DNA from: an uncultured delta proteobacterium
GTDB taxonomy: Bacteria > Myxococcota_A > Polyangia > Polyangiales > Polyangiaceae
DNA length: 32,000 nt
Direction of reading: 5' to 3'
Assembly: GCA_963811985.1 (NCBI GenBank)
Contig: CAWEUH010000051.1
Span: forward strand, 116,162 to 148,161
In this document: in pieces, positions 5,596 to 32,000 of the stretch
How positions within the stretch are numbered: the stretch's first letter is position 1
Layout: every line of letters begins with the position of its first letter
Program-made: the position numbers and the translations under genes
The notes under the pieces: model-generated
The model's input: the letters and a program-made list of their open reading frames with translations, nothing else
What the model was told of the DNA's origin: nothing
The model's database searches: none

Positions 5596-6993
5596 TCACA
5601 CGACCACGCGTTGGCCAAACTCGGGAACGACGACGGGACAATCGAAGCGCGCCAGGACTTGGTCGGCAAAGCTTGCCGTGACGTTCGTGCCCCCGTGAAC
5701 CACGGCGACATGACGCGGGCCATCGGGCATTTGAGCGAGCCAGTCGAGAAGCTCGTTGCGATCGGCGTGGCCCGAAAAGCCGTGAACCTGAGCTACCTGG
5801 ATCGAGACGGGCATGAAGCGACCGAAGAGGCGAACCTCCGGCGGGCGCTCGAGAAGTTGGCGGCCGAGCGTCCCCGTTGCCTGGTAGCCAACGAACAGCA
5901 GGGTGCTCTCGGGTCGCTCGAGATGCCGTGCAAGGTGATGCTTGATGCGGCCGCCCGTGCACATGCCCGAACCGGCAATGATGATCGACGGGTGTCGGTA
6001 CTCGTTGATGCGCTTCGATTCTTCGCACGAGGCGCACAAATGCAGTTCGGGCATCTTGAACGGTGAGTGCCCGCCCTGCAACGCGTCACGCGACGACGAG
6101 TCCATGGCTTCTGGATGTTGACCAAAGACTTTCAAGAGATTGACTGCCATCGGGCTGTCGAGGAAGATGGGGCAGGGACCGATACGCCCCGCATCGCGAA
6201 GCTTCTGTAGGTAAAAGAGCAGCTCTTGGGCGCGCTCGACGGCGAAACACGGAATGAGTACCGAGCCTCCGCGTTGCAACGTGGGGGTGATGACGCCTTC
6301 GAGCTGCGTGAGCACGTCGATCGTGTCATCGTGAATTCGATCCCCATACGTTGACTCGATGACGACGAGATCGGCGAACGGCGGAGGCGACGGATCGGGC
6401 ACCAAAGGGCGGCCCGGTCGCCCGAGATCCCCCGAAAATAGCACGCGCTTTTTGCTCTCGTGATGCTCGAGCAGCACGATGCTTGCCCCGAGAATGTGCC
6501 CGGATGGCAATAGGGTGGCCGAAACGCCCGGCGCGATGTTTTCGGGCTTGCCGAAGTTCAGCCCGCGCAAGACTTCACACGCACGTGTGACGTCGTCTTC
6601 GTCGAAGAGTACCGCGGGCGGAAAGCGCGATTGGCGGCCTTCGGCCTGGTGACGCTTGCGTTTGTTCGCGACGTCTTCTGCCTGCAGATGGGCGGCATCA
6701 TACAACACCAAAGGGACGATTCCCGCCGTAGCGCGGGAACAGAATGTAGGCCCGGCGTACCCCATACGAACCAACCGAGGCAACCAACCCGTGTGGTCGA
6801 TGTGTGCATGCGTGAGCACGACGGCGTCGATCGCGGACGGCGCAACGGCGAAGGCATCCCAGTTGCGCCCGGCGTTTTGCCGCTCTTGATAGAGCCCGCA
6901 GTCCACGAGCACCCGCGCGCCCTCGAACTCGACGAGGTGCCGCGACCCTGTCACGTTGCGGGCAGCGCCGAGAAATGAAATGCTAGTCGTCAT
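5596..6993 (-). CDS. MBL-fold beta-CASP family hydrolase (RNA-metabolising metallo-beta-lactamase type)
   Basis: ORF 5596..7275. The conserved body starts at MTTSISFLGAARNVTGSRHLVEFEGARVLVDCGLYQE. It has the HxHxDH motif (THAHIDHTG) and a C-terminal ..VHGFSGHADRNELLDWL.. motif typical of beta-CASP. Start set at ATG 6993 because the upstream 94 codons look like a spurious GC-rich extension. Confidence 0.8.
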   Translation of the reverse strand: MTTSISFLGAARNVTGSRHLVEFEGARVLVDCGLYQERQNAGRNWDAFAVAPSAIDAVVLTHAHIDHTGWLPRLVRMGYAGPTFCSRATAGIVPLVLYDAAHLQAEDVANKRKRHQAEGRQSRFPPAVLFDEDDVTRACEVLRGLNFGKPENIAPGVSATLLPSGHILGASIVLLEHHESKKRVLFSGDLGRPGRPLVPDPSPPPFADLVVIESTYGDRIHDDTIDVLTQLEGVITPTLQRGGSVLIPCFAVERAQELLFYLQKLRDAGRIGPCPIFLDSPMAVNLLKVFGQHPEAMDSSSRDALQGGHSPFKMPELHLCASCEESKRINEYRHPSIIIAGSGMCTGGRIKHHLARHLERPESTLLFVGYQATGTLGRQLLERPPEVRLFGRFMPVSIQVAQVHGFSGHADRNELLDWLAQMPDGPRHVAVVHGGTNVTASFADQVLARFDCPVVVPEFGQRVVV

Positions 6994-7147
6994 TCGAATC
7001 TTCGACGTTACAGCGTCGCGGTCGCCAGAACAAGCGGATTCGGAACACGTTACAAGCGTCGCAAAAGACCTTGTCAAGCCCATACGAATGCTACACTCTC
7101 GGGGTTTCAAGCCAAGTGACACCGGTAAGCTGCCTCGAATACAGTCA

Positions 7148-9118
7148 ATGTGCCTGGGCATCGGTCTGCTCCGGGCGAGTTGTAAACGGCAGGTCAGCGT
7201 GAAGCGGCCGGCACTTCTAGCGTTATGGACATTGGGCTGCAGCCACCCGGCCATGGCAGGCACTGGCCTCGACAATCAGTCCGAGGCATTGAAAAACGAT
7301 CGCGAGGTTCAGCCTCGGCATTCAAGCGTTTCTGCGGACCCGATCAATGGCCAAGCGTTTCCTGACCGAGTGCTCGCGTTGACGTGGGATGACGGTCCCG
7401 ATGTACACACCGTTGAGCTGGCGCGGTATCTGCAGTCCGAACGAGTGTCGGCAACGTTCTTCGTCGTCAATGAGTGGCAGCCCAAGATCTCGTCCGATCC
7501 GGGCGAAGGGCGTTACACGTTCCACACGGGATACAAGCATATCCCCGTGCTTGGCGATTTGGTCGCACTCGGGCATCGCGTTGGCAATCATTCACAGAAT
7601 CATGTTCTTCTTACCGAAGTGGCTCCGGCACAAGCCCTCGAACAGATTGCCTACGGGCAACGCGCAGTTGACTTATTTGCCAGCAATGAGCAGCGGTTCT
7701 TTCGCGCACCGGGCGGGGCTTGGAATATCTCAGTAGCCACCGCAGCGGACTGCGATCCCAATATCCAAGATGCGCTGCCTCCGATTCGCTGGGACGTGGA
7801 TCGCAAAGACTGGATGAATTCGATCGAGTGCAATTCCGACCGTCCGAAGATCGAGTGTGAGTGGCACAACGACCGATGGCGTGTCAAGGCCGCCGTCACG
7901 GCACGTCGTTATGTCGATTCGGTTCTGTCGTTGCGGCACGGAATCGTCCTTTTGCACGATCGAGTCGGAGACGTTGGGTCGCAGTATGCCCTGGATGTGG
8001 CCCAAATCTTGGTGCCTGCGCTGAAATCCCGAGGCTTTGTGTTTGCTGCGCCCGTGCTTCGGTTCTCGCCACTTGCTGAGCGAGTCAATTGGACGAACCC
8101 GTTAGCGGCTTCAGCCCTGTTGACGTCGAGCTTGCGTCTTGCAAAAGGCAGAGAGCACGGCGCCTATCTATGCGGGGAGTCGAACGTCGGCGCCCTCTGC
8201 GTTCCCGCAAGACACGCAAGGCCAACGAATCGGATGCCCTTCAGCGACTTTGGGGGTGGATCCGTCCTCGACGGGAGCGAGCATCAGTCAACAATGACCG
8301 ACCGCAATGCAAGCAGGCGTTACGGTGACATAAATGGCGACGGTGCAATCGACTATTGCGAAATCTCTTCGAACCGTATTGACTGCCGTTTGGGGTCCGG
8401 TGGGGGTCAGTTTGTCGGCCCCGCAACCTGGTCACTTGGGCCAAGCGACGGCCCTGGTGTAGTCACGCGGGCGTCACAAAACCTGGGTCGCGACGGCACA
8501 GACTTCTGGCTCGCAGATCTCGACGGAAACGGGCGGGCGGATTTATGTGGCTGGGCTGGGTCACAGCTCGTCTGTGCGCTAAGTAATGGGTCCGGTTTCT
8601 CTGCAACGACGGTGTGGTTATCGGAAGATGAGGCTATGCTCCAAGACAGCGAGCTTTCAATGAATCGTCGGCAAACGCTGGAATTTGGTGACGTTAATGG
8701 GGACGGTCGAGACGACGTGTGCTGGAGCAATTCGAACGGCGTCACCTGCGCGCTATCGACCGGGACCCGATTCGATCAGCCGACGCAATGGTCCGGTAGC
8801 GACCGACTTGGCGTGACATTGCGCGATCGATGGGTTCCCCAAGGTGTCTACGGGGCCACCCTCCGCCTCGGTGATCTAAACGGCGACGGCTATGCCGATC
8901 TGTGCGGGCGGTCGCCGTCGGGAGTTCTTTGCGCGTTGTCAACAGGTCATGAATTCCTTGCCCCCACATTGTGGCTCGACCAGGGAATGCGAGATAGTGA
9001 TGGCTGGCTTGACCCGCGCGCACACCCTTCAATCGAGCTTGTCGATCTTAATGGCGATGGTCGCGCTGATCTCTGCGCAATTCTATCCGAACGAGTCCTG
9101 TGTGCGATTGCGCCCTGA
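7148..9118 (+). CDS. Secreted polysaccharide deacetylase (NodB/CE4 homology domain) fused to Cys-containing FG-GAP/VCBS-like repeats
   Basis: ORF 6956..9118. NodB motif LTWDDGPDVHTVELARYLQSERVSATFFVV and HSQNH. The C-terminal half has about 6 repeats of GD(I/V/L)NGDG(R/Y)(A/D)D(L/V)C...CALS(N/T)G. Start at ATG 7148 gives a signal-like N-terminus (..PALLALWTLGCS). The start is uncertain. Confidence 0.7.
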   Translation: MCLGIGLLRASCKRQVSVKRPALLALWTLGCSHPAMAGTGLDNQSEALKNDREVQPRHSSVSADPINGQAFPDRVLALTWDDGPDVHTVELARYLQSERVSATFFVVNEWQPKISSDPGEGRYTFHTGYKHIPVLGDLVALGHRVGNHSQNHVLLTEVAPAQALEQIAYGQRAVDLFASNEQRFFRAPGGAWNISVATAADCDPNIQDALPPIRWDVDRKDWMNSIECNSDRPKIECEWHNDRWRVKAAVTARRYVDSVLSLRHGIVLLHDRVGDVGSQYALDVAQILVPALKSRGFVFAAPVLRFSPLAERVNWTNPLAASALLTSSLRLAKGREHGAYLCGESNVGALCVPARHARPTNRMPFSDFGGGSVLDGSEHQSTMTDRNASRRYGDINGDGAIDYCEISSNRIDCRLGSGGGQFVGPATWSLGPSDGPGVVTRASQNLGRDGTDFWLADLDGNGRADLCGWAGSQLVCALSNGSGFSATTVWLSEDEAMLQDSELSMNRRQTLEFGDVNGDGRDDVCWSNSNGVTCALSTGTRFDQPTQWSGSDRLGVTLRDRWVPQGVYGATLRLGDLNGDGYADLCGRSPSGVLCALSTGHEFLAPTLWLDQGMRDSDGWLDPRAHPSIELVDLNGDGRADLCAILSERVLCAIAP

Positions 9119-9135
9119 ATTGGAGGTTCCGTGAG

Positions 9136-9846
9136 ATGACCGTAGCCATATTGATGCCGACGTACAATGAAGGAGGTCGTCTCGTCGCGACGCTTGAAGC
9201 GCTACGCGAGCGTGGCGCAGAATTCGGCGGTCTGGTCGTCTTGCTGGTGGATGATGGGAGCGGGCTACCCGTGGGCATTCAGCAGCTTCCCGGAGCGACA
9301 CGTGACTTTCGCGTGCGGCTAGCACGGCATGCACTCAATTTGGGGCAAGGCGCCGCACTGGAGACCGCGCGCAGGATGGCGCTCGAGCATCCGGGCTGTA
9401 CGGCATACGTAACCATGGACTCTGACGGACAACACAGCGTTGACGGCGCCTTGGCAATGGCGCAGGCGGTTGCATCGGGGGCAGACGTGGCATTTGGCAG
9501 TCGCTTTCTCTCCGGCTCCGTTATACCGCCGCGCAGGCGTGCACTGCTGCGGGCTGCGCGGCTGTTCGAATGGTCGCTGAGCGGGCTTCGGCTATCGGAC
9601 GCCCACAACGGGCTAAGGGGGTTCAGCCGACGTGCACTTGAGCGCCTCCGCATCCGTCAGAACGGAATGGCGCACGCTACCGAAATCACGTTGTCGGCAT
9701 CCAACAAGCGAGGGTGGTCGATCGTAGAAGTGCCCGTCTTGGTGAAATATAGCCAAGAGTCGTTGAACAAGGGGCAGCCAACCTCATCCGCGCTCGGAAT
9801 TGTGAATGATCTGCTGCTTCAGTATTTGTTTGGAGATCGCATATGA
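9136..9846 (+). CDS. Family 2 glycosyltransferase, polyprenyl-phosphate sugar synthase-like (GtrB/DPM1-like)
   Basis: MTVAILMPTYNEGGRLVATLEAL...LLVDDGSGLP...TMDSDGQH is the GT-A/GT2 signature. A GGAGG sits 10 nt upstream of ATG 9136. The stop overlaps the next start as ATGA at 9843-9846. Confidence 0.8.
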   Translation: MTVAILMPTYNEGGRLVATLEALRERGAEFGGLVVLLVDDGSGLPVGIQQLPGATRDFRVRLARHALNLGQGAALETARRMALEHPGCTAYVTMDSDGQHSVDGALAMAQAVASGADVAFGSRFLSGSVIPPRRRALLRAARLFEWSLSGLRLSDAHNGLRGFSRRALERLRIRQNGMAHATEITLSASNKRGWSIVEVPVLVKYSQESLNKGQPTSSALGIVNDLLLQYLFGDRI

Positions 9847-10229
9847 ACTTCGCGAGCATACTTCTGCTGACGTTTGTCATGGGTCTGGTCGTATTCGACA
9901 CAATAATGCTCTGGACCAAGAACCGAAGAGCGTTGTTGCTCGAATGGTTGGTATTCTTCACGGGAGCATACTTCATTGCTTTCCCTGAGCAGTCAACGGT
10001 ACTCGCGCATGCGTTCGGCATTGGTCGTGGCGTAGATTTTCTAATCTATCCGATCGTTATCTGGCTAACTCGGGAATCGCTTCTCAATCGACGGCGACGT
10101 ATCCAGGATGCGGAGAACATTACCAGGCTCACGCGCGCATTGGCCCTCGCCGGAGTACAGGCACAGGAAATGCACTTTACTCCACTGCGCGATAGTCTCC
10201 ACACTCAAGCTTCGATTCCACGGACTTGA
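9843..10229 (+). CDS. Small membrane protein, DUF2304-like (a common partner of GT2 genes)
   Basis: 128 aa with 3-4 TM segments. The motif FGIGRGVDFLIYPIV, followed by a charged helical tail, resembles DUF2304 as I remember it. Translationally coupled to the GT2 gene. Confidence 0.55.
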   Translation: MNFASILLLTFVMGLVVFDTIMLWTKNRRALLLEWLVFFTGAYFIAFPEQSTVLAHAFGIGRGVDFLIYPIVIWLTRESLLNRRRRIQDAENITRLTRALALAGVQAQEMHFTPLRDSLHTQASIPRT

Positions 10230-18962: not shown

Positions 18963-21900
18963 GTTTCAACTCACGCCCGCGCGCGGCGGGCGACCGCGGA
19001 CTTCGCCGCTGGGGGTTACGGGGTGGGTTTCAACTCACGCCCGCGCGCGGCGGGCGACAATGTCGTCAATGTAGCATTTGGGCACGATTCGTTTCAACTC
19101 ACGCCCGCGCGCGGCGGGCGACAACAAGCGGTGGCATCGGTGGAGATGTCGTGCTGTTTCAACTCACGCCCGCGCGCGGCGGGCGACTATCTTGACGGGA
19201 AGTTTACGTGCCGGAGTGACGTTTCAACTCACGCCCGCGCGCGGCGGGCGACACATCGCGCGCCGTGAGCCATGCCAATGGATTTGTTTCAACTCACGCC
19301 CGCGCGCGGCGGGCGACGCTCAAAAGCATGCAACGTTCGACAAGCTCAAGTCTCAACTCACGCCCGCGCGCGGCGGGCGACCTGCTGGTTTTACGGAGGA
19401 ACTTACGGACGAAGTTTCAACTCACGCCCGCGCGCGGCGGGCGACCACTTTACCAAGAGCCTCAAGTTCTTCCTTACGGTTTCAACTCACGCCCGCGCGC
19501 GGCGGGCGACACGGGTTTGCTTGCTGCTGCCGTTAGTTGTCCGGTTTCAACTCACGCCCGCGCGCGGCGGGCGACTTTGCCGCGAACGAATTATTAGAGA
19601 CGGACAAGTTTCAACTCACGCCCGCGCGCGGCGGGCGACGTTTTTCAGCTGCACACCATCAAGCCCCAAAATCGTTTCAACTCACGCCCGCGCGCGGCGG
19701 GCGACCGGCTCCAGCGAAGTTTCGAAGGGCCCGGACAGTTTCAACTCACGCCCGCGCGCGGCGGGCGACCAAGGGATGCCAGCGACATGCCGGGCAAATC
19801 GGTTTCAACTCACGCCCGCGCGCGGCGGGCGACCCGGCGGAGTACAGCTAGCCGGTACGGTATTCGTTTCAACTCACGCCCGCGCGCGGCGGGCGACACC
19901 CGAGAGTGACGACGAATCGTCAGGAATTGAGGTTTCAACTCACGCCCGCGCGCGGCGGGCGACTTTTGGAGGCGTGAATGACGCAGTGGTATACAAGGTT
20001 TCAACTCACGCCCGCGCGCGGCGGGCGACAGTCCCTCGAGATCCAACTCGGAACCGTGTGGGTTTCAACTCACGCCCGCGCGCGGCGGGCGACTCGCAAT
20101 AGACACGCCCGACGATGCCGCCTCGAGGTTTCAACTCACGCCCGCGCGCGGCGGGCGACCACATCGCTGAGACGGTGATTCCAAGGCTTGCTGTTTCAAC
20201 TCACGCCCGCGCGCGGCGGGCGACTATGACACTAATCGACCAGTTGACCGATGAACAGTTTCAACTCACGCCCGCGCGCGGCGGGCGACCTTAGGCCTCT
20301 TGTTGAGGCCACCCCATTGTTTGTTTCAACTCACGCCCGCGCGCGGCGGGCGACATGACCTATGCTCACTATGAGGCCTGTTGTCGTGTTTCAACTCACG
20401 CCCGCGCGCGGCGGGCGACGTGATGGATTTCATTGTCGGCCACCCCCGGTTGTTTCAACTCACGCCCGCGCGCGGCGGGCGACCACCGAACTTGGTCGCC
20501 AATGCCAATGCATAACGTTTCAACTCACGCCCGCGCGCGGCGGGCGACCAAGTCGCACATGCGCCTCGCGCCGAGAACTGGTTTCAACTCACGCCCGCGC
20601 GCGGCGGGCGACGAGAAGATGTCACGAAGCGCGCGCGGGCCTCTGTTTCAACTCACGCCCGCGCGCGGCGGGCGACTTCGACGCTGCAACGACGGGCAAC
20701 CTGTTCATGTTTCAACTCACGCCCGCGCGCGGCGGGCGACGGACCAGAGATTTCGGGGAAAGAGGCTGTTGAGTTTCAACTCACGCCCGCGCGCGGCGGG
20801 CGACCGGGAACGTCAGGCAATTTCGGAGGCGAACGTGTTTCAACTCACGCCCGCGCGCGGCGGGCGACGGGTCTTAGGGCCAAAGAGTCTTTGCAGACCT
20901 TGTTTCAACTCACGCCCGCGCGCGGCGGGCGACGGTCCGGTAGTCCTGGATAGTCGCGGCAGATCTGTTTCAACTCACGCCCGCGCGCGGCGGGCGACTT
21001 GGGCTGGGCGTCAATCTGCGCGCTCGTGGTGGTTTCAACTCACGCCCGCGCGCGGCGGGCGACCCGGTTGGCGACATCACACGCAATGACGCACTGTTTC
21101 AACTCACGCCCGCGCGCGGCGGGCGACTTGGGCTGGGCGTCAATCTGCGCGCTCGTGGTGGTTTCAACTCACGCCCGCGCGCGGCGGGCGACCCGGTAAT
21201 TGCAATCAAGTCGGTACTTGTAAAGTTTCAACTCACGCCCGCGCGCGGCGGGCGACTAAGTACCAACGTGGCGCCAGCTGGTACCGTGGTTTCAACTCAC
21301 GCCCGCGCGCGGCGGGCGACAATCGCGACTTTACCCGCTAAAGTCCAGTTGATGTTTCAACTCACGCCCGCGCGCGGCGGGCGACCAGCCGAGCCCACGG
21401 TCGTGGCCGCGCACTTCACGTTTCAACTCACGCCCGCGCGCGGCGGGCGACCCGGATTTTGACGCCGCGGGGGACTGCTAGGGAGTTTCAACTCACGCCC
21501 GCGCGCGGCGGGCGACTAGCGTCGATGCAAGACGAGGCATTCGTTGTTGTGTTTCAACTCACGCCCGCGCGCGGCGGGCGACTAAAAATGGAAACGGACT
21601 GGATAATCGAAGAGGTTTCAACTCACGCCCGCGCGCGGCGGGCGACCGGGGTTGCGCTTGATCTGTGATAAGGACTTGGTGTTTCAACTCACGCCCGCGC
21701 GCGGCGGGCGACGACGAGAGTCGGAGCCAAGGTGTCGAACGATTGCGTTTCAACTCACGCCCGCGCGCGGCGGGCGACCGTCGGGGGCGATCGCGTCAAA
21801 ATCCCCGGAAGTTTCAACTCACGCCCGCGCGCGGCGGGCGACAACCTTCGCACCCAATTGCGGGTGATTCAAGAGTTTCAACTCACGCCCGCGCGCGGCG

Positions 21901-24900
21901 GGCGACGAGCGGTCGGACCACGCGTGAAGGCCCAAGATGTTTCAACTCACGCCCGCGCGCGGCGGGCGACTGGCGGCAGCGGAAAGGAACGGGATTCTTG
22001 AATGTTTCAACTCACGCCCGCGCGCGGCGGGCGACCCCGCGGCTCATGTTGGACGGCTGGATATTCATGTTTCAACTCACGCCCGCGCGCGGCGGGCGAC
22101 GAGCTAGGCAAGCGCGCCGGAAGCCGATTTTGGTTTCAACTCACGCCCGCGCGCGGCGGGCGACAACGAGGATTGCCACATGTGCCCGCGGTTCGCATGT
22201 TTCAACTCACGCCCGCGCGCGGCGGGCGACACCAACATTCCAAGGCACGTCGATGATTCGACCGGTTTCAACTCACGCCCGCGCGCGGCGGGCGACCTGC
22301 CGCCGATTAATACACTAGCCGAATCTATTGTTTCAACTCACGCCCGCGCGCGGCGGGCGACGAGCGTGCGACACGAATGAAAGTGGCGGGATCGGGTTTC
22401 AACTCACGCCCGCGCGCGGCGGGCGACATCAACCCCCTTTCGGAAGCTGATCGATGCCCACGTTTCAACTCACGCCCGCGCGCGGCGGGCGACCCGTCCA
22501 TAGAAGAAGGGGTCGATAGTTGTGATCGTTTCAACTCACGCCCGCGCGCGGCGGGCGACAGGGTACGAAGACGGCGAAGGCCTAGGAAAAGGTTTCAACT
22601 CACGCCCGCGCGCGGCGGGCGACCGCCAAGGTCAACATTTGTAGCTAGTTGCCGTATCGTTTCAACTCACGCCCGCGCGCGGCGGGCGACCACGGAGCCC
22701 ATTACACGCGGCATTCAATTGGGTTTCAACTCACGCCCGCGCGCGGCGGGCGACTAAGTGCTGAGCGAACGAAGAATGCCGATTTTGTTTCAACTCACGC
22801 CCGCGCGCGGCGGGCGACTTTACTTTTTGGGACGAGGTTTAGTGCATTCGTGTTTCAACTCACGCCCGCGCGCGGCGGGCGACACTAAAACGAACTGGCA
22901 GAACCAAGCTGTTGCGGTTTCAACTCACGCCCGCGCGCGGCGGGCGACAGGATGAGCTTTTGCGGCCCACGTGGCCCAGTGTTTCAACTCACGCCCGCGC
23001 GCGGCGGGCGACAGGGTCACCGCGGAGTTAGATTGAGCCCAGAAGTTTCAACTCACGCCCGCGCGCGGCGGGCGACAAGCGTTGCTCGCAGTGCTTTGCC
23101 AACAAAATTGTTTCAACTCACGCCCGCGCGCGGCGGGCGACGCGACTTCCCGACTCGCATCGGTCGAGACGAGCAGTTTCAACTCACGCCCGCGCGCGGC
23201 GGGCGACTTCCAATCGAAGTCGCTGCAGCGTCGAACAGATAGTTTCAACTCACGCCCGCGCGCGGCGGGCGACTCCGATTCTTGAAGCTGCAACCGGTGA
23301 CATCGTGTTTCAACTCACGCCCGCGCGCGGCGGGCGACAACGCAGCTGCGGCGAATGACACTAGCCGCAGTGTTTCAACTCACGCCCGCGCGCGGCGGGC
23401 GACTTTGTCGCGCTTCTGCGGCGCTTCAATCATACTTGTTTCAACTCACGCCCGCGCGCGGCGGGCGACTGCGAGTCTGCGCGATGCATCCAGAGCTGAC
23501 TAGTTTCAACTCACGCCCGCGCGCGGCGGGCGACTTGCCGGAGTAATCTCGATCCACTGTCCATTGATGTTTCAACTCACGCCCGCGCGCGGCGGGCGAC
23601 CCCAAGATGCTGCACGCTGTTATCGGAGGCATGTTTCAACTCACGCCCGCGCGCGGCGGGCGACGTTGAATCTGCGAGCTTGCCCGGATATCCCTTCAAG
23701 TTTCAACTCACGCCCGCGCGCGGCGGGCGACTGCCGACGAAGCGGCACCAGTCGAAGACGAAGTGTTTCAACTCACGCCCGCGCGCGGCGGGCGACCAAC
23801 GCTGACCGTCTTCACCGTCCGCTTCGATTGTTTCAACTCACGCCCGCGCGCGGCGGGCGACGCGGCTGCAGGAATCCAGGCGCCCAAACCATTGTTTCAA
23901 CTCACGCCCGCGCGCGGCGGGCGACTTTGCGGCCTTCGTCGTGCTGTTGCACTGTGGGTTTCAACTCACGCCCGCGCGCGGCGGGCGACCGTTGCTGACC
24001 TCTTGTTCGGTCATCCCAATTTGGTTTCAACTCACGCCCGCGCGCGGCGGGCGACTGTAGCGGTCGAAGTTGCAACTCCTCGACAATGTTTCAACTCACG
24101 CCCGCGCGCGGCGGGCGACTTGGTGCTAGCTCCATCGACACATGTTCAATTGTTTCAACTCACGCCCGCGCGCGGCGGGCGACCGTCCAAGCTCGAGCGG
24201 CTTATGGAGCGCGGCATGTTTCAACTCACGCCCGCGCGCGGCGGGCGACGCCGCGACTCGCTGGCATTGATTCGAGCAAGTCGTTTCAACTCACGCCCGC
24301 GCGCGGCGGGCGACACCCCCATTGTAGAAAGTGCTCTCAAGAGCATGTTTCAACTCACGCCCGCGCGCGGCGGGCGACTTTTGCATGCAAGAAAGTAGGA
24401 CAACAACATGGGTTTCAACTCACGCCCGCGCGCGGCGGGCGACCGCAAAACTGTCTGAGCTCTTCAGCGAAGCGAAGTTTCAACTCACGCCCGCGCGCGG
24501 CGGGCGACGTCAATAGCCAGCAACGCGCGTTGAGCAGTCAGTTTCAACTCACGCCCGCGCGCGGCGGGCGACGCTTGTTCTTCTCCGGACCGACTGCGTA
24601 AATCTGTTTCAACTCACGCCCGCGCGCGGCGGGCGACCTGCGAATCATCTCACCGAACCGCTCAAGACTGGGTTTCAACTCACGCCCGCGCGCGGCGGGC
24701 GACCGCAACGATTCGAAGGGTGGTCGCGAAATGATGTTTCAACTCACGCCCGCGCGCGGCGGGCGACAGGCGCGCCGGCATCTTGGCGATGCTCGCAGAG
24801 TTTCAACTCACGCCCGCGCGCGGCGGGCGACGTCCGACACTGGCAACAATCCCGTGGGCTCTTGTTTCAACTCACGCCCGCGCGCGGCGGGCGACGTCTG

Positions 24901-27900
24901 AATCGTACGATCCGGTAAACAGGTTGGGGTTTCAACTCACGCCCGCGCGCGGCGGGCGACTCCAGTGGAAGATCAGCAGACGAAGTGCCAAAAGGTTTCA
25001 ACTCACGCCCGCGCGCGGCGGGCGACACACGTTCGTCCGTCACCAGGTCATGCATTGGCGTTTCAACTCACGCCCGCGCGCGGCGGGCGACGGCCTCGTA
25101 CGTGTACCACCCGAAGTCATAGACGTTTCAACTCACGCCCGCGCGCGGCGGGCGACCAGCATGGTCCGTATGTCCCACAAGCAGTACAGCAGTTTCAACT
25201 CACGCCCGCGCGCGGCGGGCGACATCCGATTCGATGACCCTTCGCTCGGCACTCGGTTTCAACTCACGCCCGCGCGCGGCGGGCGACTAGGACGCCTTTC
25301 CACGCGTCGTGCTCGGTGAGTTTCAACTCACGCCCGCGCGCGGCGGGCGACCAGACGAAACCCAAACCGCAGTCGGGCTATGCGTTTCAACTCACGCCCG
25401 CGCGCGGCGGGCGACTGTGCCACGTGTTGGTTGACCACCTGTAGTAGAGTTTCAACTCACGCCCGCGCGCGGCGGGCGACCGCGTCGATTCCAAGTCTCC
25501 GTCGAGTTCGGCGTTTCAACTCACGCCCGCGCGCGGCGGGCGACACCCTACCTCAATAAAGCGGCCGCCGATGCGATGTTTCAACTCACGCCCGCGCGCG
25601 GCGGGCGACGCAATGTGATAAATCCTAGGTCGTCGGGACCGGGTTTCAACTCACGCCCGCGCGCGGCGGGCGACGGGTGTGATCGTTCTTCCAAAATGCC
25701 AACTTCATGTTTCAACTCACGCCCGCGCGCGGCGGGCGACCATCACTGGATCATCCGTGGAACATCCAGTGGTTTCAACTCACGCCCGCGCGCGGCGGGC
25801 GACCGACGTCCGAAACCGCCGCGGATTGACTTTGGGTTTCAACTCACGCCCGCGCGCGGCGGGCGACAACCGAAATCGCGCGATGGTCAGCAACCCATTT
25901 GTGGTTTCAACTCACGCCCGCGCGCGGCGGGCGACGTCAACGTCCTACCGAGTGGTTCTTTGACAGAGTTTCAACTCACGCCCGCGCGCGGCGGGCGACG
26001 ACTCGTTTGGCGGGCTTGCTCCGATCAGCTTGTTTCAACTCACGCCCGCGCGCGGCGGGCGACATCTATGTGTTCGGACATGATACCAATTACCTGTTTC
26101 AACTCACGCCCGCGCGCGGCGGGCGACAATCGAGTTCTGTCAACCGCGACCTGCAATTTGATGTTTCAACTCACGCCCGCGCGCGGCGGGCGACCTGCTG
26201 CTGGGTCGCCGTGATTGCGTCCGTCGCGTTTCAACTCACGCCCGCGCGCGGCGGGCGACCTGCCCGACATTCCGACAATGCGCGAGCGGATGTTTCAACT
26301 CACGCCCGCGCGCGGCGGGCGACCGCACCAATTCTGGCAATTGGCGCCCGCGAATTGTTTCAACTCACGCCCGCGCGCGGCGGGCGACCCAGCGCCCCAC
26401 CGTCAGCACATTGTAGGTGTGTTTCAACTCACGCCCGCGCGCGGCGGGCGACATGGATTCGCCAAATGACCTATCGGTATGTCTTGTTTCAACTCACGCC
26501 CGCGCGCGGCGGGCGACATCCACAATTGGGGCAGAGGTGGGCAACGGATAGTTTCAACTCACGCCCGCGCGCGGCGGGCGACGAATGATGCAATCTGTGG
26601 CCAGCTCGGCATTTCTGTTTCAACTCACGCCCGCGCGCGGCGGGCGACCTCGTCAGTCGCGCGAGTACTCGGCGCGAGCCACGACGCGCAAGACGTAGGT
26701 TTCAACTCACGCCCGCGCGCGGCGGGCGACCCGCAGTGGCAACGCGCGCAATCGACCCGACGGCGCGAACGCAGTGTTTCAACTCACGCCCGCGCGCGGC
26801 GGGCGACAGCTCCATCGACGTCTGACTGCACACACGCGCGACTTACTTGGACAATGACTACGTTTCAACTCACGCCCGCGCGCGGCGGGCGACCCCGAAT
26901 TTCTCGCGTACGAGTCGTACCAACTGTTTCAACTCACGCCCGCGCGCGGCGGGCGACCGCACCGCTTCGACACTCACACCGCGGTGACTCGTTTCAACTC
27001 ACGCCCGCGCGCGGCGGGCGACAAGCTTGCGAACGAAGAGCTGACGCAAGCGGCGTTTCAACTCACGCCCGCGCGCGGCGGGCGACCCACAGTCTCGCGA
27101 ATTTGATAGCCGCTTCACGTTTCAACTCACGCCCGCGCGCGGCGGGCGACAATACGCTGAGTCGATATTCCGCCGTTGGTTGGTTTCAACTCACGCCCGC
27201 GCGCGGCGGGCGACCCCAACGCGTCGGCGATCAGCGCAATGGAGTACAGTTTCAACTCACGCCCGCGCGCGGCGGGCGACCAGGGGGTTGACGAAAACGA
27301 CCACCCGTTGCTCGTTTCAACTCACGCCCGCGCGCGGCGGGCGACCGGGGTGTCGTCCATTTCCTCGGGGAAATTCAAGTTTCAACTCACGCCCGCGCGC
27401 GGCGGGCGACCTCTTGAATGGTATTTTTGGGAATGCCCCCAATTGTTTCAACTCACGCCCGCGCGCGGCGGGCGACCGCCGGCACAATGCATCTGCGACG
27501 GCTTCAGGAGTTTCAACTCACGCCCGCGCGCGGCGGGCGACACCTGCAATCTCAGCACGAACCGGGACAGTAACGGTTTCAACTCACGCCCGCGCGCGGC
27601 GGGCGACTCGGCGAGTTTGGAGGCCTGATCTACTTCCTCCTGTTTCAACTCACGCCCGCGCGCGGCGGGCGACCGTTGTGCCATCGTCGCTGCATCCCAG
27701 CGCGAAGTTTCAACTCACGCCCGCGCGCGGCGGGCGACCCTTGGAAGGCACCGGGGAACACCTAATTTGGAGTTTCAACTCACGCCCGCGCGCGGCGGGC
27801 GACTGGCGACGACGGACGAATGTCAACGGCCACGTCGAAGTTTCAACTCACGCCCGCGCGCGGCGGGCGACCCTTGGTAAACGCCGACACCCCGGCAGGA

Positions 27901-28324
27901 TTCGTTTCAACTCACGCCCGCGCGCGGCGGGCGACTCTCGGAGTGTATTTGAGCGAAGGTCTTAGGGGGTTTCAACTCACGCCCGCGCGCGGCGGGCGAC
28001 CGCGTCGATTCCAAGTCTCCGTCGAGTTCGGCGTTTCAACTCACGCCCGCGCGCGGCGGGCGACCGCGGGCCGTGGACAATTGTGGTTGGCTCAAGGTTT
28101 CAACTCACGCCCGCGCGCGGCGGGCGACAACCACTGCTTGGGGAAATCTGGCGTTGCATTTTTGTTTCAACTCACGCCCGCGCGCGGCGGGCGACTCCTA
28201 AAAGCAACTGAGACAGGGTGGACGAATAGTTTCAACTCACGCCCGCGCGCGGCGGGCGACCTTTCCGTTCCAATGCTTCAATGCGGGTGCATGTTTCAAC
28301 TCACGCCCGCGCGCGGCGGGCGAC
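18963..28324 (-). CRISPR. Type I-C CRISPR array. My hand count is 144 repeats of 32 bp and 143 spacers.
   Basis: The plus-strand repeat is GTTTCAACTCACGCCCGCGCGCGGCGGGCGAC. On the minus strand it reads GTCGCCCGCCGCGCGCGGGCGTGAGTTGAAAC, with a 7-bp GC stem, a 5-nt loop and an 11-nt ..GTTGAAAC tail typical of I-C. The period is 63-68 bp (spacers of 31-36 bp), apart from three long spacers. The cas2-proximal end is at 28324. All track ORFs in this span (FQLTPARGGR, VSTHARARRAT, FNSRPRAAGD) are repeat translations. Confidence 0.98.
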
Positions 28325-28511: not shown

Positions 28512-28802
28512 CTAAATCAGCAGAAGCGCGTCTGCATCGGGCCCCTTCTGAACACCGTGGTGTTCGATTCGGCTCTTCCAATTTGAACCTAGGAAGTAAA
28601 ATCGAAGGCTGTCGTCGGCCGGTTCAATCAGCGAGAGAAGCCGCACCTTGAGGCGTTCCCACTGCGCTGGGTCAACGTCACATTCGAAGACGGAATTTTG
28701 CACTCGGTTTCCGAAGTCTTTGCAGGCCTTTGCAACGCTGTGCAGTCGCCTTTTGCCGGCCTGGCTGGCTGTGCTGACGTCGTAGCTTACGAGTACCAAC
28801 AT
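28512..28802 (-). CDS. cas2: CRISPR-associated endoribonuclease Cas2
   Basis: MLVLVSYDVSTASQAGKRRLHSVAKACKDFGNRVQNSVFECDV is the Cas2 ferredoxin-fold signature. ATG 28802 lies 2 nt after the cas1 stop. An alternative GTG start is at 28814. Confidence 0.9.
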   Translation of the reverse strand: MLVLVSYDVSTASQAGKRRLHSVAKACKDFGNRVQNSVFECDVDPAQWERLKVRLLSLIEPADDSLRFYFLGSNWKSRIEHHGVQKGPDADALLLI

Positions 28803-28804
28803 CG

Positions 28805-29839
28805 CTACCTCCACAACATCGCGGGATAGAAATCTAAGTCACCTCGAATGTGCCGTGCCAGCAGACGCGCCTGCGCCAAAAAGGCGACTCCGATTTCCAT
28901 GTCTTCTTCGAGAAACGGGTGTTGCACGGTTTCGCGTTTGCGCTTTTGATACGCAGCCAAAAACAGTTTGCGAGTGTCCGGCTTCATTTCCACTTCGCCT
29001 GACGCCTGGACGGTGAAATCGTCTGGTGCAACTTGCTTCAGATTGACCAAAGAAAGCACAAGACGGTCCGCAAATGGCGCACGAAATTCCTCTGCCATGT
29101 CGAGCGCCAAGCTCGGGCGGCCAGGTCTTTCGACATGAAGAAATCCCACGTAAGGATCGAGCCCCACGCTTTCCAACGCGGAACGCATATCGAGTGCCAA
29201 TATCGAATAGGCAAACGACATGAGGGCGTTCACCCTATCGAGCGGCGGACGGCGGTTGCGGCCTTCGAATTTGAGCTCGGGATCGGGCACACGAATTAGG
29301 CAATTGAGGACTGAAAAATACGTTTCCGCGGAATCGCCCTCGATGCCTCGAAGTGATTCATGACATTCAGCGCTTTCGATGCGACGTTGAACGGCTGCCA
29401 TCTTTTCAATTGCCGACTCGACGTCGGCTGCACCCTCGGCGTCGGTGTGATTTCGTAGAAATCGCAGAAGCACGTTTCTTTGGTTGCTGACCTTGGCGGC
29501 AATGCAACACCTGGCGATGTCTAGCGACCGCAGTTTGTCGTCCGCGTCACGATACTGCCGACGGCGCAGCGACACGTTACCGTGCATGGGGCCCACCATT
29601 CGAGCCAAGAAACGCCCATTTCCGTTTAGGTACGTAACCGTGACTCCCTCACTGGCGCAATGCTCGGTAAGTGGCGCCGATACCGTGACGCCAAAACCAA
29701 AACAGACAATCTCGCCAATGGCATGCATGGGAAATTGCGCAATCTTCTTGTGATCATGATGAATGACGATTGATTCGCCGTCCTTGTGAACGAATGCACC
29801 TTCTTGAGTCACGTAGAGCGTATTTTGGATGTGCTTCAT
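28805..29839 (-). CDS. cas1: CRISPR-associated integrase Cas1 (I-C type)
   Basis: MKHIQNTLYVTQEGAFVHKDGESIVI...LRGIEGDSAETYF...NALMSFAYSIL...DPYVGFLH are typical Cas1 motifs. ATG 29839 overlaps the cas4 stop as ATGA. Confidence 0.93.
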   Translation of the reverse strand: MKHIQNTLYVTQEGAFVHKDGESIVIHHDHKKIAQFPMHAIGEIVCFGFGVTVSAPLTEHCASEGVTVTYLNGNGRFLARMVGPMHGNVSLRRRQYRDADDKLRSLDIARCCIAAKVSNQRNVLLRFLRNHTDAEGAADVESAIEKMAAVQRRIESAECHESLRGIEGDSAETYFSVLNCLIRVPDPELKFEGRNRRPPLDRVNALMSFAYSILALDMRSALESVGLDPYVGFLHVERPGRPSLALDMAEEFRAPFADRLVLSLVNLKQVAPDDFTVQASGEVEMKPDTRKLFLAAYQKRKRETVQHPFLEEDMEIGVAFLAQARLLARHIRGDLDFYPAMLWR

Positions 29840-30489
29840 CCAAAGAGCTCCTTTCGGTAGGCTTGCGCCTTGGTTCCATTTTGCGACCGCGGTTGGCAGA
29901 CTTCGATGAGCGAACAGGCGCGACAATGGCGTTTATACACCGGCGCGGGCAGCAATTGCTCGACAATGATTCGCCGCAACCGAGTGGCCATGGCCTCCGT
30001 TTTGGCCCTGAGCGAAGCATCGAATTGTACTTGCTCTCGCCGCCGGATATCACCGTAAAACACGGAACCTGATTGAATGGGGGAACCTGTCATTTCCTCC
30101 AGGCACAATGCTTGGGCGCAGACTTGAATCCGATCCGCGTCGTGCTTCTTGGGTTTACCGCGCTTGAATTCTACTGGGTGCAGCTCCCACTGACCCTTTA
30201 GCCGCAGGAATTGGGCGTTGTCTGGCTCGTCTGCGGTCTTGACTACCTCGACCACGTCCAATTGCCCATAAATGCCCAGCCGCAGATTGCGCACGTGCAC
30301 CCCAGAGAATTGACGCAGTCCGCGCCGGTACTCCCGGTAGCCCTCGTCCACTCGCTCATGCAGCGTGCGGCCCTCAGCCGTCAGGCGATTCTCCTCCCAC
30401 TCACGCTCAACATGGATCAATGCACATTGGCGCTCACAGAACGCCAAGTGCTGCAATGCCGAAAGAGGGATTAGATCTTCGTCACGCAT
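29836..30489 (-). CDS. cas4: CRISPR-associated exonuclease Cas4
   Basis: It has the N-terminal Cys (LQHLAFCERQCAL), RecB-like motifs (..QLDVVE.., EFKRGKPK) and the C-terminal CRACSLIEVC cluster. I prefer ATG 30489. The ORF-track TTG start is at 30498. Confidence 0.9.
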   Translation of the reverse strand: MRDEDLIPLSALQHLAFCERQCALIHVEREWEENRLTAEGRTLHERVDEGYREYRRGLRQFSGVHVRNLRLGIYGQLDVVEVVKTADEPDNAQFLRLKGQWELHPVEFKRGKPKKHDADRIQVCAQALCLEEMTGSPIQSGSVFYGDIRRREQVQFDASLRAKTEAMATRLRRIIVEQLLPAPVYKRHCRACSLIEVCQPRSQNGTKAQAYRKELFG

Positions 30490-30521
30490 TGAAGGCAATT
30501 TCCCGCTGAGTCAGACTGACG

Positions 30522-31355
30522 TTAACCTTTCTTTGTCGATAGGCGCTTCGGCGCCCGCTCTGGCAAATAGTTGTGCGAACTCACGACCTTTCGCCCTGTT
30601 CGCCCTTCCAATTCTTTTCGTGCCCGACCGGCAACGCTACCGCCCTCGCGCGCAGCCTTTTTGCTTTGACCGAACCCTTGAGCATCCTTGACTCGCGTAA
30701 TCTCGGTTGTTGCGGCTTCGCCGAGCATGCTGAAGATCAGCTCCAGGTCGTTCATGTGATCGCGAAGATTCTCGCGCTTGAGGCCCTTGACCTCTTTATA
30801 TTCGGAAGGAGTAATCCCGAATGCCGCCTTCGAAATCTCCGCCGTCAGAATTGCGTAATCGCGATCTTCCTCGACGCCGCGATTCTTCCATTCCTCCGTG
30901 AGCTCCTCGCGAATCGCGATCGCGCGCATGCGTTTCTCAACCCAATCATCCGGGTAACCCTTGGCCTTATAGAGTGCGCGCGTGCGCTGGGTGGCCAGCT
31001 CAGGGTCCTCAATCTCCTGCACCCGCTCGTAACCCACTTTGGCCAGCCATCGCTTGAAGGGTTCGGCTTTGGGGGAGGGAATACCCTGAATAATGCGGAA
31101 AATACCTTCGGTATTCGCGCAACCCAACTTCTGCGGACCGCCGGCCGTCTCGATCGAAAGGGGGGTGACAAATTGTCCCCACCCTTTCTCGAGATGCTCG
31201 TCACGCAGCCGCATCTTCCGGACGTAGTCCTTTGGGTCGGGTGTGTCTGTTAGGGCGGCAACTACGTCATTGACGACGAACCACCACTCGTCGTTGTGCA
31301 GCGTCTTGCGGATCTGCTTACCACGGAAGAGGGCGATTTGGGTGTTGGGACTCAC
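30522..31355 (-). CDS. Bro-N domain protein of the DinD-like (DNA-damage-inducible protein D / phage antirepressor-like) family, embedded in the cas operon
   Basis: 277 aa with a GTG start 2 nt after the cas7 stop and an AAGG 7 nt upstream. The Bro-N pattern is IALFRGKQIRKTLHNDEWWFVVNDVVAALT...TAGGPQKL..ANTEGIFRIIQGIPSPKAEPFKRWL. The C-terminal half (..LRDHMNDLELIFSMLGEAATTEI..) resembles E. coli DinD as I recall it. Confidence 0.8.
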   Translation of the reverse strand: MSPNTQIALFRGKQIRKTLHNDEWWFVVNDVVAALTDTPDPKDYVRKMRLRDEHLEKGWGQFVTPLSIETAGGPQKLGCANTEGIFRIIQGIPSPKAEPFKRWLAKVGYERVQEIEDPELATQRTRALYKAKGYPDDWVEKRMRAIAIREELTEEWKNRGVEEDRDYAILTAEISKAAFGITPSEYKEVKGLKRENLRDHMNDLELIFSMLGEAATTEITRVKDAQGFGQSKKAAREGGSVAGRARKELEGRTGRKVVSSHNYLPERAPKRLSTKKG

Positions 31356-31357
31356 CG

Positions 31358-32000
31358 CTACACCTTGCGCAGAATGGTTACGCCTTCCGGCATGTCCGCC
31401 TCATTCACCGTCACTTCGTAATCCGCGAAGCTTCGAGCAGGGCCGTCTGATTTGTTTTTGCGCTGCACTTGGACACGCTCGAACAGCGCATGCGCGGGTG
31501 CGTTGCCCAAAGCATCCTTATGTTCAAAGACAATAAGCCCACGCGTCGCCATAAGCCCGCGCGCGGCTGAACGATCATGCTCGAACATATTAATGACAGC
31601 ATCCCAAAACAGCTTGAGGTCGTCTTCGTTGAAACCGGTTTGATTCGCCAGATGTGCCGAAACGAACCCGTGGGCGCGATACAAGCCGTAAGGTATTGTA
31701 AACTTGCGACCCATCGTACGATTGTCGCCACCCTGCTTCTCTGCCTCCGCCTCCGTGGCAACAGCCATGCGCGTAATGCTATGCTCGAGAGCGACCACAG
31801 GTTCAATCGAACGAGCAAACGTCAGCTGGATTGGGCCGCGGACTTGGCCGCAATTGGGCGCTGATTTCAATGACATCACTGCACCAAATGTTCTAATGTC
31901 ATAGAATCGGTTGCACATCCAATCCCGCCCACGTTCAACTTCGTCAGCGTTGGGCTTCCTCGCCTTTACGCCTTTCAGAGCACCGTCCAAGAATCGTTTG
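31358..32000 (-). CDS. cas7: Cas7 of type I-C (Csd2). The 5' part lies beyond the window.
   Basis: ..[15 protein letters not shown]....[17 protein letters not shown]....[35 protein letters not shown].. are characteristic Csd2 motifs. The frame stays open to the window edge. Confidence 0.9.

Follow-up and report, generated by a model that had tools for sequence, protein, structure and literature searches.

Accessory genes carried within immune operons have repeatedly proved to be working parts of a layered defence, and PrrC in a type I restriction–modification (R-M) locus is the classic case. A survey of type I R-M loci places dinD/RhuM, Fic and DUF1016 genes between the core genes (PMC9881135), and embedded accessory genes of this kind have been read in the literature, by analogy with PrrC, as extra layers of defence. 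Here we describe a gene lodged in a comparable way within a CRISPR–Cas operon. It lies in a 32,000-nucleotide stretch from an uncultured delta proteobacterium (contig CAWEUH010000051.1; hereafter the window), in which a 277-residue open reading frame (ORF) at 30522–31355 stands between cas7 and cas4 of a type I-C operon. We use the name gene X for this DinD/DdrC-like gene, and X for its product.

Two described proteins bear on what X might do. Escherichia coli DinD is regulated by LexA and is named among the regulators of the RecA nucleoprotein filament in an account citing Uranga et al. (2011), the title of which states that DinD inhibits postsynaptic RecA filaments. DdrC of Deinococcus radiodurans is a damage-induced homodimer that binds nicks or double-strand breaks in pairs and traps them, and it has been published as having no identifiable homologues outside Deinococcus.

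We find that X is strongly conserved and fixed at the seam between interference and adaptation genes over a whole I-C clade, and that it appears to have been captured independently at the equivalent seams of I-E, V-A and type III R-M operons. Our preferred reading, to which we give a probability of about 45%, is that X is a self-contained DNA-break-binding accessory, repeatedly lodged where the modules of DNA-cutting immune operons meet. The break-binding activity is proposed on two grounds, the similarity of the X model to the DdrC fold and a distant family similarity to DinD.

Results

Gene X lies between the interference and adaptation modules

All features of the locus, namely cas7, X, cas4, cas1, cas2 and the CRISPR array, are carried on the minus strand, and X runs from a GTG start (31355–31353) to a TAA stop (30524–30522). 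Its 5' neighbour is cas7 (Csd2, type I-C), truncated by the end of the window to its 3' part (31358–32000); it matches PF05107 at E = 1.4e-70 and TIGR02589 with 292 bits against a 182-bit cut-off, and ends in a TAG stop at 31360–31358. The junction (31356–31366) reads TAG-CG-GTG, with 2 nucleotides (nt) between the cas7 stop and the X start, and a Shine–Dalgarno (SD)-like AAGG (31366–31363) lies inside the cas7 3' end, 7 nt 5' of the GTG. Judged from the sequence, this spacing is typical for translational coupling. On the 3' side, a spacer at 30499–30521 gives a distance of 23 nt to a TTG at 30498, or 32 nt to an ATG at 30489, as the start of cas4 (29836–30498), the PD-(D/E)XK nuclease of the adaptation module (PF01930, E = 2e-24; TIGR00372, 128 bits).

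No promoter-like or terminator-like sites were found flanking X in the window, nor were transposase genes, repeats or integration scars found around it there, and the guanine-plus-cytosine (GC) content is uniform over cas7-X-cas4 at 0.55–0.59. An earlier note on this DNA had described the GTG-started, same-strand ORF, its tight spacing on both sides with the SD-like element, and the lack of room for a separate promoter or terminator; each of these is borne out. The cas3, cas5 and cas8c genes fall outside the window, and the locus is called type I-C because of its Cas7, its repeat sequence and the complete operons of its close relatives.

The cas7-X-cas4 layout is conserved and X is under purifying selection

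All seven of the homologues at 76–87% identity that were looked up have the cas7-X-cas4 arrangement in a complete I-C operon, ordered (WYL)-cas3-cas5-cas8c-cas7-X-cas4-cas1-cas2. These operons come from separate metagenomes and metagenome-assembled genomes (MAGs), one Fibrobacteria MAG included, and two further cas7-X-cas4 loci (L090 and L091) were found in a metagenome scan. The clade at ≥76% identity is the only one that is consistently cas-embedded (7/7). In the seven related operons the gap from cas7 to X is −11 to +4 nt and that from X to cas4 is −4 to +88 nt, where the value of 88 depends on the cas4 start called.

The ratio of nonsynonymous to synonymous substitution rates (dN/dS) for X is 0.06–0.08, or about 0.07, at dS above 1; for the relative L001 against the window it is 0.077 at dS = 1.13. 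Among distant operons, in which synonymous sites are saturated, X is 76–83% identical, compared with 61–71% for Cas4, Cas1 and Cas2. The relatives of X are all full length and show no decay. The earlier suggestion that the arrangement might prove peculiar to this strain and in decay does not hold, since the layout is common to all seven close relatives. A recent insertion of X was likewise rejected, as the GC content does not shift, X is not flanked by a promoter or terminator, and the gene shows no decay.

Comparison of L001 with the window gives 86% identity for X and 94–95% for Cas4, Cas1 and Cas2, but just 30% for Cas7; L001 and L086 are both X-containing I-C operons in which Cas7 is 30–35% identical to that of the window. 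Because Cas7 is divergent in L001 while the adaptation genes are alike, X evidently moves with the adaptation module through an interference-module swap, and the sequences point to recombination between the two modules at or near the cas7/X junction.

Two details of the related loci may be recorded here. In L089 (1544–2279) an X-containing I-C operon is interrupted between cas3 and cas5 by a toxin–antitoxin-like pair (DUF3368 PIN-like plus UPF0175) that is oriented the opposite way. In L004 (10840–11408), the Logan assembly of the L003 locus (compare L003:10923–11534), cas4 was called as two short ORFs; this is probably a gene-calling difference, since tblastn shows an intact Cas4 match.

X is a two-domain Bro-N protein of a large cellular family

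The N-terminal Bro-N domain that had been expected in X is present: PF02498 matches residues 15–106 (31038–31313, minus strand; E = 7e-12) with 46.2 bits against a gathering cut-off of 25.6 bits, and the same profile matches the cas-embedded relatives of X in V-A, I-E and I-C loci. X was modelled as a monomer with AlphaFold2 from a 104-sequence alignment, giving a predicted local distance difference test score (pLDDT) of 88.4 and a predicted template modelling score (pTM) of 0.70. This model supersedes an earlier one from a shallow alignment (≥71% identity), which had a pLDDT of 56 and an unusable C-terminal domain. In the newer model the Bro-N domain consists of a beta-hairpin, three helices, a beta-hairpin and a helix. 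The helical C-terminal domain (residues 136–253; 30597–30950, minus strand) is a four-helix bundle plus one short helix and holds the conserved motifs KGLKRENLRDHMNDLELIFSMLGEA and GGxVAGxAR. A basic, disordered tail with a net charge of +6 (residues 254–277; 30525–30596, minus strand) completes the protein, with pLDDT below 50 for residues 267–277, the last 11, and about 59 for residues 261–270.

Among the matches of X to Pfam, NCBIfam and PADLOC there was no Cas family model. X belongs to the PADLOC family PDC-S13 (PDLC04920; E = 3.3e-111, 369 bits, residues 1–268 against model positions 1–271 of 286), and it is matched over its full length by PHROG 15286, a family of unknown function, at E = 2e-85. 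An exact-sequence look-up of X found no identical record. The family comprises 7,403 clusters at 50% identity (E ≤ 1e-3), or 658 at E ≤ 1e-30, and 37 positions are invariant over 104 sequences at 40–87% identity; K101, W103, R142 and D199 are examples of invariant residues. Relatives at 60–75% identity occur in Patescibacteria, DPANN archaea, Bacteroidota, Planctomycetota, Verrucomicrobiota and Proteobacteria, and such identity over distant taxa argues for frequent horizontal transfer together with strong constraint. In records of mobile elements the family is rare, with 4 of 50,697 phage and 24 of 72,556 plasmid records; its 290 relatives in IMG/VR reach no more than 58% identity. On these 4 phage and 24 plasmid records a reading of X as a phage gene or plasmid gene was rejected.

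Several proteins of 414–419 residues (among them P0356, P0374, P0380 and P0381) join the X family to a YhcG_C nuclease domain. Fusions with a single representative each (P0163, P0173, P0266 and P0217) involve EAD11, a low-molecular-weight phosphatase (LMWPc), a reverse transcriptase and a C-terminal HTH_3 domain, and the reverse transcriptase fusion includes the C-terminal part of X only. Some of the rare fusions may be gene-calling artefacts.

The Bro-N domain raises the question of whether X might be an antirepressor-like transcription regulator of cas4-cas1-cas2 or of the whole operon, which we consider very improbable. Bro-N occurs in phage antirepressors, the PHROG Ant families match X at E = 6e-9 to 1e-4, in the N-terminal part except for a weak match to phrog_130, and the rare HTH_3 fusions would suit a regulator. 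However, the best PHROG and PADLOC matches are to families of unknown function rather than to Ant, the many unrelated contexts of X share no target operon, and the family is scarce in phages. Regulators, moreover, are usually transcribed separately and not wedged within an operon. An assignment of X as a phage antirepressor (Ant) in its own right was also rejected, given the few phage records and Ant matches that cover mainly the N-terminal part.

X is probably a distant relative of DinD and resembles DdrC in predicted fold

The resemblance to DinD that had been noted earlier stands in part. X has the Bro-N domain and the length of DinD and a colinear C-terminal match, in which BLASTP aligns X residues 140–218 with DinD residues 131–215 at 28% identity (E = 0.003). 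X as a DinD equivalog (NF008573/PRK11525) was rejected, with 21.6 bits over residues 142–235 only against a 242-bit cut-off. By profile and alignment, then, X is probably a distant relative with the DinD architecture and is not a DinD orthologue; the possibility raised earlier, that a profile search would find neither Bro-N nor DinD, does not hold.

Structure comparison was proposed in the earlier note with phage Ant/KilA-N proteins in mind. In the Foldseek viral structure library the X model matches phage Bro-N and KilA-N proteins at E-values similar to those of the PDB matches, with E = 4e-7 to 1e-3 for phage Bro-N 'repressor domain' proteins. In the PDB the only significant matches are DdrC chains (7UDI, 7QVB and 8U0G; probability 1.00). 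These have E = 8e-7 to 3e-5 over 216–250 aligned columns and span both domains, and the next PDB match has an E above 1. The elements of X follow one another as a beta-hairpin, three helices, a beta-hairpin, a helix, two linker helices and a bundle with a short connecting helix. We take X to have a DdrC-like fold, the X side of this comparison being a predicted model, and on the same basis DdrC may be a divergent member of a very large Bro-N/DinD-type family.

X occurs at module boundaries of several kinds of immune operon

Eighty loci each were sampled from representative genomes and from metagenomes, ranked by similarity to the cas-embedded X. About 8 of the 80 genome loci and 13 of the 80 metagenome loci are linked to cas genes or CRISPR arrays, fractions that are inflated by ranking on a cas-embedded query. 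The order is cas4-X-cas1-cas2 in L018 and in L030, the latter a complete I-C operon; cas12a-X-cas4-cas1-cas2 in the type V-A locus of a Treponema (L067); and cas5-cas6e-X-cas1-cas2 in a type I-E locus (L071). The metagenome loci include three more I-E cases of cas6e-X(-cas1) and three of cas4-X. Elsewhere X lies at the far end of a CRISPR array (L059), upstream of cas3 (L016), or before a Fic/DOC gene that a cas4 fragment follows, on a contig with no visible effector gene (L032). The cas7-X-cas4 layout for which the earlier note proposed a survey does recur, but the association is with the adaptation module, through adjacency to cas4 or cas1 across subtypes, and not with I-C alone.

In one Ignavibacteriota locus (L077:1–13867), cas9-cas1-cas2 and a type II-like array (6007–9855) directly precede X-cas4-IS200 transposase-cas1-cas2, which has an I-C-like array. 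No I-C effector genes were seen within 10 kb upstream of X, and X-cas4-cas1-cas2 here looks like an orphan adaptation module.

In a neighbour-joining tree of X, the I-C cas7-X-cas4 set forms one clade, and the remaining cas-embedded copies are scattered over at least four further places among non-cas copies; these positions argue for several independent captures of X by cas loci. A random gene can be roughly estimated, from general knowledge, to adjoin cas1 or cas4 with a probability near 5e-4. X does so in 5 of 80 loci, more than 100-fold above that rough estimate, a figure that is an upper bound given the similarity-ranked sample.

X is not predominantly cas-adjacent, and the remaining sampled loci are R-M or solo. 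It lies between mod and res of type III R-M operons in L007, L069, L042 and L253, and also in L054 and L062. Relatives at 72–74% identity are among those in type III R-M operons or alone, and two solo copies among housekeeping genes (P0043 and P0083) are at 74%. No partner gene is conserved over all 80 genome loci. The R-M association mentioned in the earlier note is supported by the type I survey (PMC9881135) and, in our sample, by the type III mod/res placement. The view that X resides mostly in type I R-M loci was rejected: HsdM and HsdS are not among the top 25 neighbour families, and for type I embedding the support consists of the literature plus a weak PADLOC Specificity_I match.

These contexts bear on whether X could be a dedicated adaptation accessory, which would act physically with Cas4–Cas1–Cas2 to capture or protect prespacer DNA and so link interference products to acquisition. 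Cas-linked X almost always adjoins cas4 or cas1, on the adaptation side, in I-C, I-E and V-A loci; it has been co-inherited with cas4-cas1-cas2 under the swap of cas7 and kept in the L077 module; the window carries a very large array of 143 spacers; and the DdrC-like fold of the model suggests DNA-end binding. Against such a role, homologues at 72–74% identity work without neighbouring cas genes, other genes unrelated to X (Fic, RhuM, YhcG) can take the same place, and to our knowledge most described I-C systems have the canonical operon and lack such a gene. We regard this role as improbable.

The same contexts might instead mean that X is a selfish or neutral hitch-hiker, adding nothing to CRISPR at a junction that is permissive, well expressed and open to insertion or recombination. 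The neighbours of the family are highly diverse, its 60–88% identity over phyla of both bacteria and archaea implies frequent horizontal transfer, and the junction is a breakpoint of module recombination that accepts other cargo, even an IS200 transposase. Yet the layout has outlasted synonymous saturation at a dN/dS of about 0.07 with its tight or overlapping junctions conserved, at least five independent lineages have X at the same kind of junction, and the window lacks the flanking scars of insertion. Purifying selection shows that X is useful to something, not necessarily to CRISPR, and we regard a hitch-hiker as improbable.

Other small genes use the same slot

Fic/DOC genes are found at the effector/adaptation junction of other cas operons (L016, L146 and L132), and RhuM or RhuM-Fic genes take this position in L158 and L169. 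These Fic/DOC, RhuM and RhuM-Fic fusion genes, of about 336–356 residues, occur in I-C and I-E operons, sometimes with X; the Fic/DOC or RhuM genes are at L016:18196–19818, L146:2189–3241, L132:4832–5875, L158:2483–3493, L169:1480–2520 and L032:1612–2682. Genes for DUF1016/YhcG PD-(D/E)XK nucleases are found elsewhere in cas operons (L091 and L132). The YhcG genes at L091:312–1361, L132:2831–3901 and L016:10921–11685 represent positions within cas operons (between cas5 and cas8c, and after cas6e) and beside X.

The company of predicted toxins raises the alternative that X is a back-up abortive-infection effector, guarded by its host immune system as PrrC is in the EcoprrI type I R-M system. 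X would then be silent while the Cas or R-M system is intact and, upon inhibition of that system by a phage, would become toxic through DNA binding and blockade of the nucleoid or of recombination. Fic/DOC and RhuM use the same operon slot, X is fused in places to EAD11, an effector-associated domain, and to the YhcG PD-(D/E)XK nuclease domain, its family is a PADLOC defence candidate, and it is embedded in R-M as well as cas operons, all of which would suit a guarded effector. On the other hand, neither a catalytic nor a toxin domain can be recognised in X, no antitoxin gene adjoins it, and many copies stand alone in housekeeping surroundings where no guard system is near. Toxins usually diversify fast, but the sequence of X is extremely conserved, and its characterised family relative, E. 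coli DinD, and its fold relative, DdrC, both serve in DNA maintenance and are not toxins. We consider that X is unlikely to be such an effector, while giving the idea some weight.

Remaining features of the window

The adaptation module continues with cas1, for which the ORF spans 28805–29926 (minus strand; PF01867, E = 1e-100). Its true start is probably at 29839; Cas1 would then have 344 residues, its length in all of the relatives, and its gene would overlap the cas4 stop by 4 nt, again as the relatives do. The cas2 gene follows at 28512–28814 (minus strand; PF09827, E = 3e-25), with a probable start at 28802.

The CRISPR array (18963–28324, minus strand) contains 144 repeats and 143 spacers, the 144 repeat matches comparing with 0 by chance. 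The repeat is 32 nt long and type I-C-like, reading GTCGCCCGCCGCGCGCGGGCGTGAGTTGAAAC on the minus strand. The repeats are near-identical, with a T-to-C change in one of them at 19350. At 26649–26861 three consecutive spacers are long, about 50, 45 and 54 nt compared with the usual 32–36 nt, and the repeat spacing is correspondingly 82, 77 and 86 nt compared with 63–68 nt elsewhere. The remaining genes of the window are ordinary chromosomal ones, for an MFS transporter, thymidylate synthase, a beta-CASP nuclease and glycosyltransferases.

Discussion

We favour the reading of X as a break-binding accessory that is self-contained. Near-identical proteins occur without cas neighbours, so that X is not a Cas-specific subunit; the recurrence of the arrangement in many unrelated microbes makes it probably a real immune accessory. 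It would be a two-domain DNA-binding protein of a Bro-N plus DinD/DdrC-type superfamily, and would belong with Fic/DOC, RhuM and the DUF1016/YhcG nuclease to a set of small, horizontally mobile genes. Such genes would lodge, without a promoter of their own, at module seams, namely effector/adaptation in CRISPR–Cas and mod/res in R-M operons, and be expressed from the host operon. In the window, X is predicted from the sequence to be co-transcribed with cas7 and cas4-cas1-cas2, with translational coupling probable, and within its clade it has been kept there by strong purifying selection.

As to activity, we infer that X acts as a DdrC-like dimer that binds the DNA nicks or ends made by a neighbouring nuclease, whether Cas3, Cas12a or Res, and that, being DinD-like, it may in addition impede their RecA-type processing. 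The outcome would be that cleavage of invader DNA becomes harder to repair, or that damage from self-cleavage is limited, or both. Effects on interference and on adaptation are likewise predictions, and X encoded within a cas operon could also keep fragments available for Cas4–Cas1–Cas2.

A more specific proposal would have a DdrC-like X dimer clamp the nicks or ends made by Cas3 or Cas12a and pass the DNA to Cas4–Cas1–Cas2 with RecA kept off, and thereby serve as a dedicated coupler of interference and primed acquisition, recruited independently by I-C, I-E and V-A systems. We think this decidedly improbable. Were it true, DdrC and E. coli DinD would fall into one ancient and widespread Bro-N-based family of break-handling proteins.

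Several observations weigh against our preferred reading. The sampling, as noted, overstates the cas-linked fraction, and even so about 85–90% of the sampled family members are not beside cas genes, many of them with housekeeping neighbours only; with most copies away from cas, no Cas partner is required and the co-location could be merely permissive. Fic and RhuM, as predicted toxins, fit a back-up toxin at least equally well. The link to DinD is weak, hhalign giving a probability of 48% and E = 2e-4 over 99 columns. For DdrC, the whole-chain TM-scores against X are low, at 0.28–0.51; the two DdrC chains of one dimer likewise do not superpose as whole chains. Finally, profile searches of the PDB detected no sequence-level link between X and DdrC, returning chance matches only (flavivirus NS5, villin and USP37).

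If X handles breaks, as its fold suggests, it would offer a handle on how the products of immune nucleases are channelled to repair, destruction or spacer capture, and on how self-damage by a cell's own immune nucleases is limited. The PADLOC candidate PDC-S13 gains a testable function, and DdrC is suggested to be a member of a huge family of at least 7,400 clusters at 50% identity. That R-M operons can harbour dinD-like genes is documented, and the family already figures among catalogued defence candidates. In the literature searched we found no report of the X family at the interference/adaptation boundary of I-C, I-E or V-A loci, of a slot common to X, Fic, RhuM and YhcG genes, or of the link to the DdrC fold. 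The earlier statement that no function was established for such a protein in a cas operon agrees with the searched literature, with the qualification that the family itself had been catalogued as PDC-S13.

It remains to set X beside the described systems that it most resembles. PDC-S13 is a candidate defence family whose entry is silent on placement inside cas operons, and no paper naming it was found in the literature searched. Phage Ant/BRO proteins have the N-terminal Bro-N fold in common with X, but the C-terminal domain of X is probably of the DinD type and not the KilA-C or Ant-C of phage antirepressors, and the X subfamily, unlike Ant/BRO, is cellular and rare in phages. With DdrC, the X model shares the published order of secondary-structure elements (for the N-terminal part, PMC9303277), in which a beta-hairpin and a winged-helix-like N-terminal domain are followed by linker helices and a four-helix bundle containing a short connecting helix. 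The two differ in that the N-terminal domain of DdrC is acidic and that of X slightly basic, and in that an asymmetric, domain-swapped homodimer binding two breaks is a feature of DdrC, while X is known here as a monomer model.

E. coli DinD (PcsA, SOS-induced) is nearly equal to X in length (274 compared with 277 residues) and carries Bro-N at residues 10–105, N-terminal as in X. The two are about 28% identical over 88 residues, with colinear C-terminal regions and the common motif KGLK..L.DHM..EL, and the DinD family, like that of X, is highly conserved in distant taxa. The dinD gene, however, is stand-alone and LexA-regulated (LexA control and inhibition of RecA filaments being known for E. 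coli DinD only), whereas X is embedded in an operon with no promoter of its own in the window.

The accessories embedded in R-M loci, PrrC in EcoprrI and the RhuM, Fic/DOC, DUF1016 and dinD-like genes between hsd genes, represent the same gene set as that found here. X differs from PrrC in having no HEPN or other toxin domain. Both the R-M accessories and X sit between core genes of a DNA-cutting immune operon; unlike the R-M accessories, X has CRISPR–Cas of types I-C, I-E and V-A as its host here, and its slot is the boundary between effector and adaptation genes.

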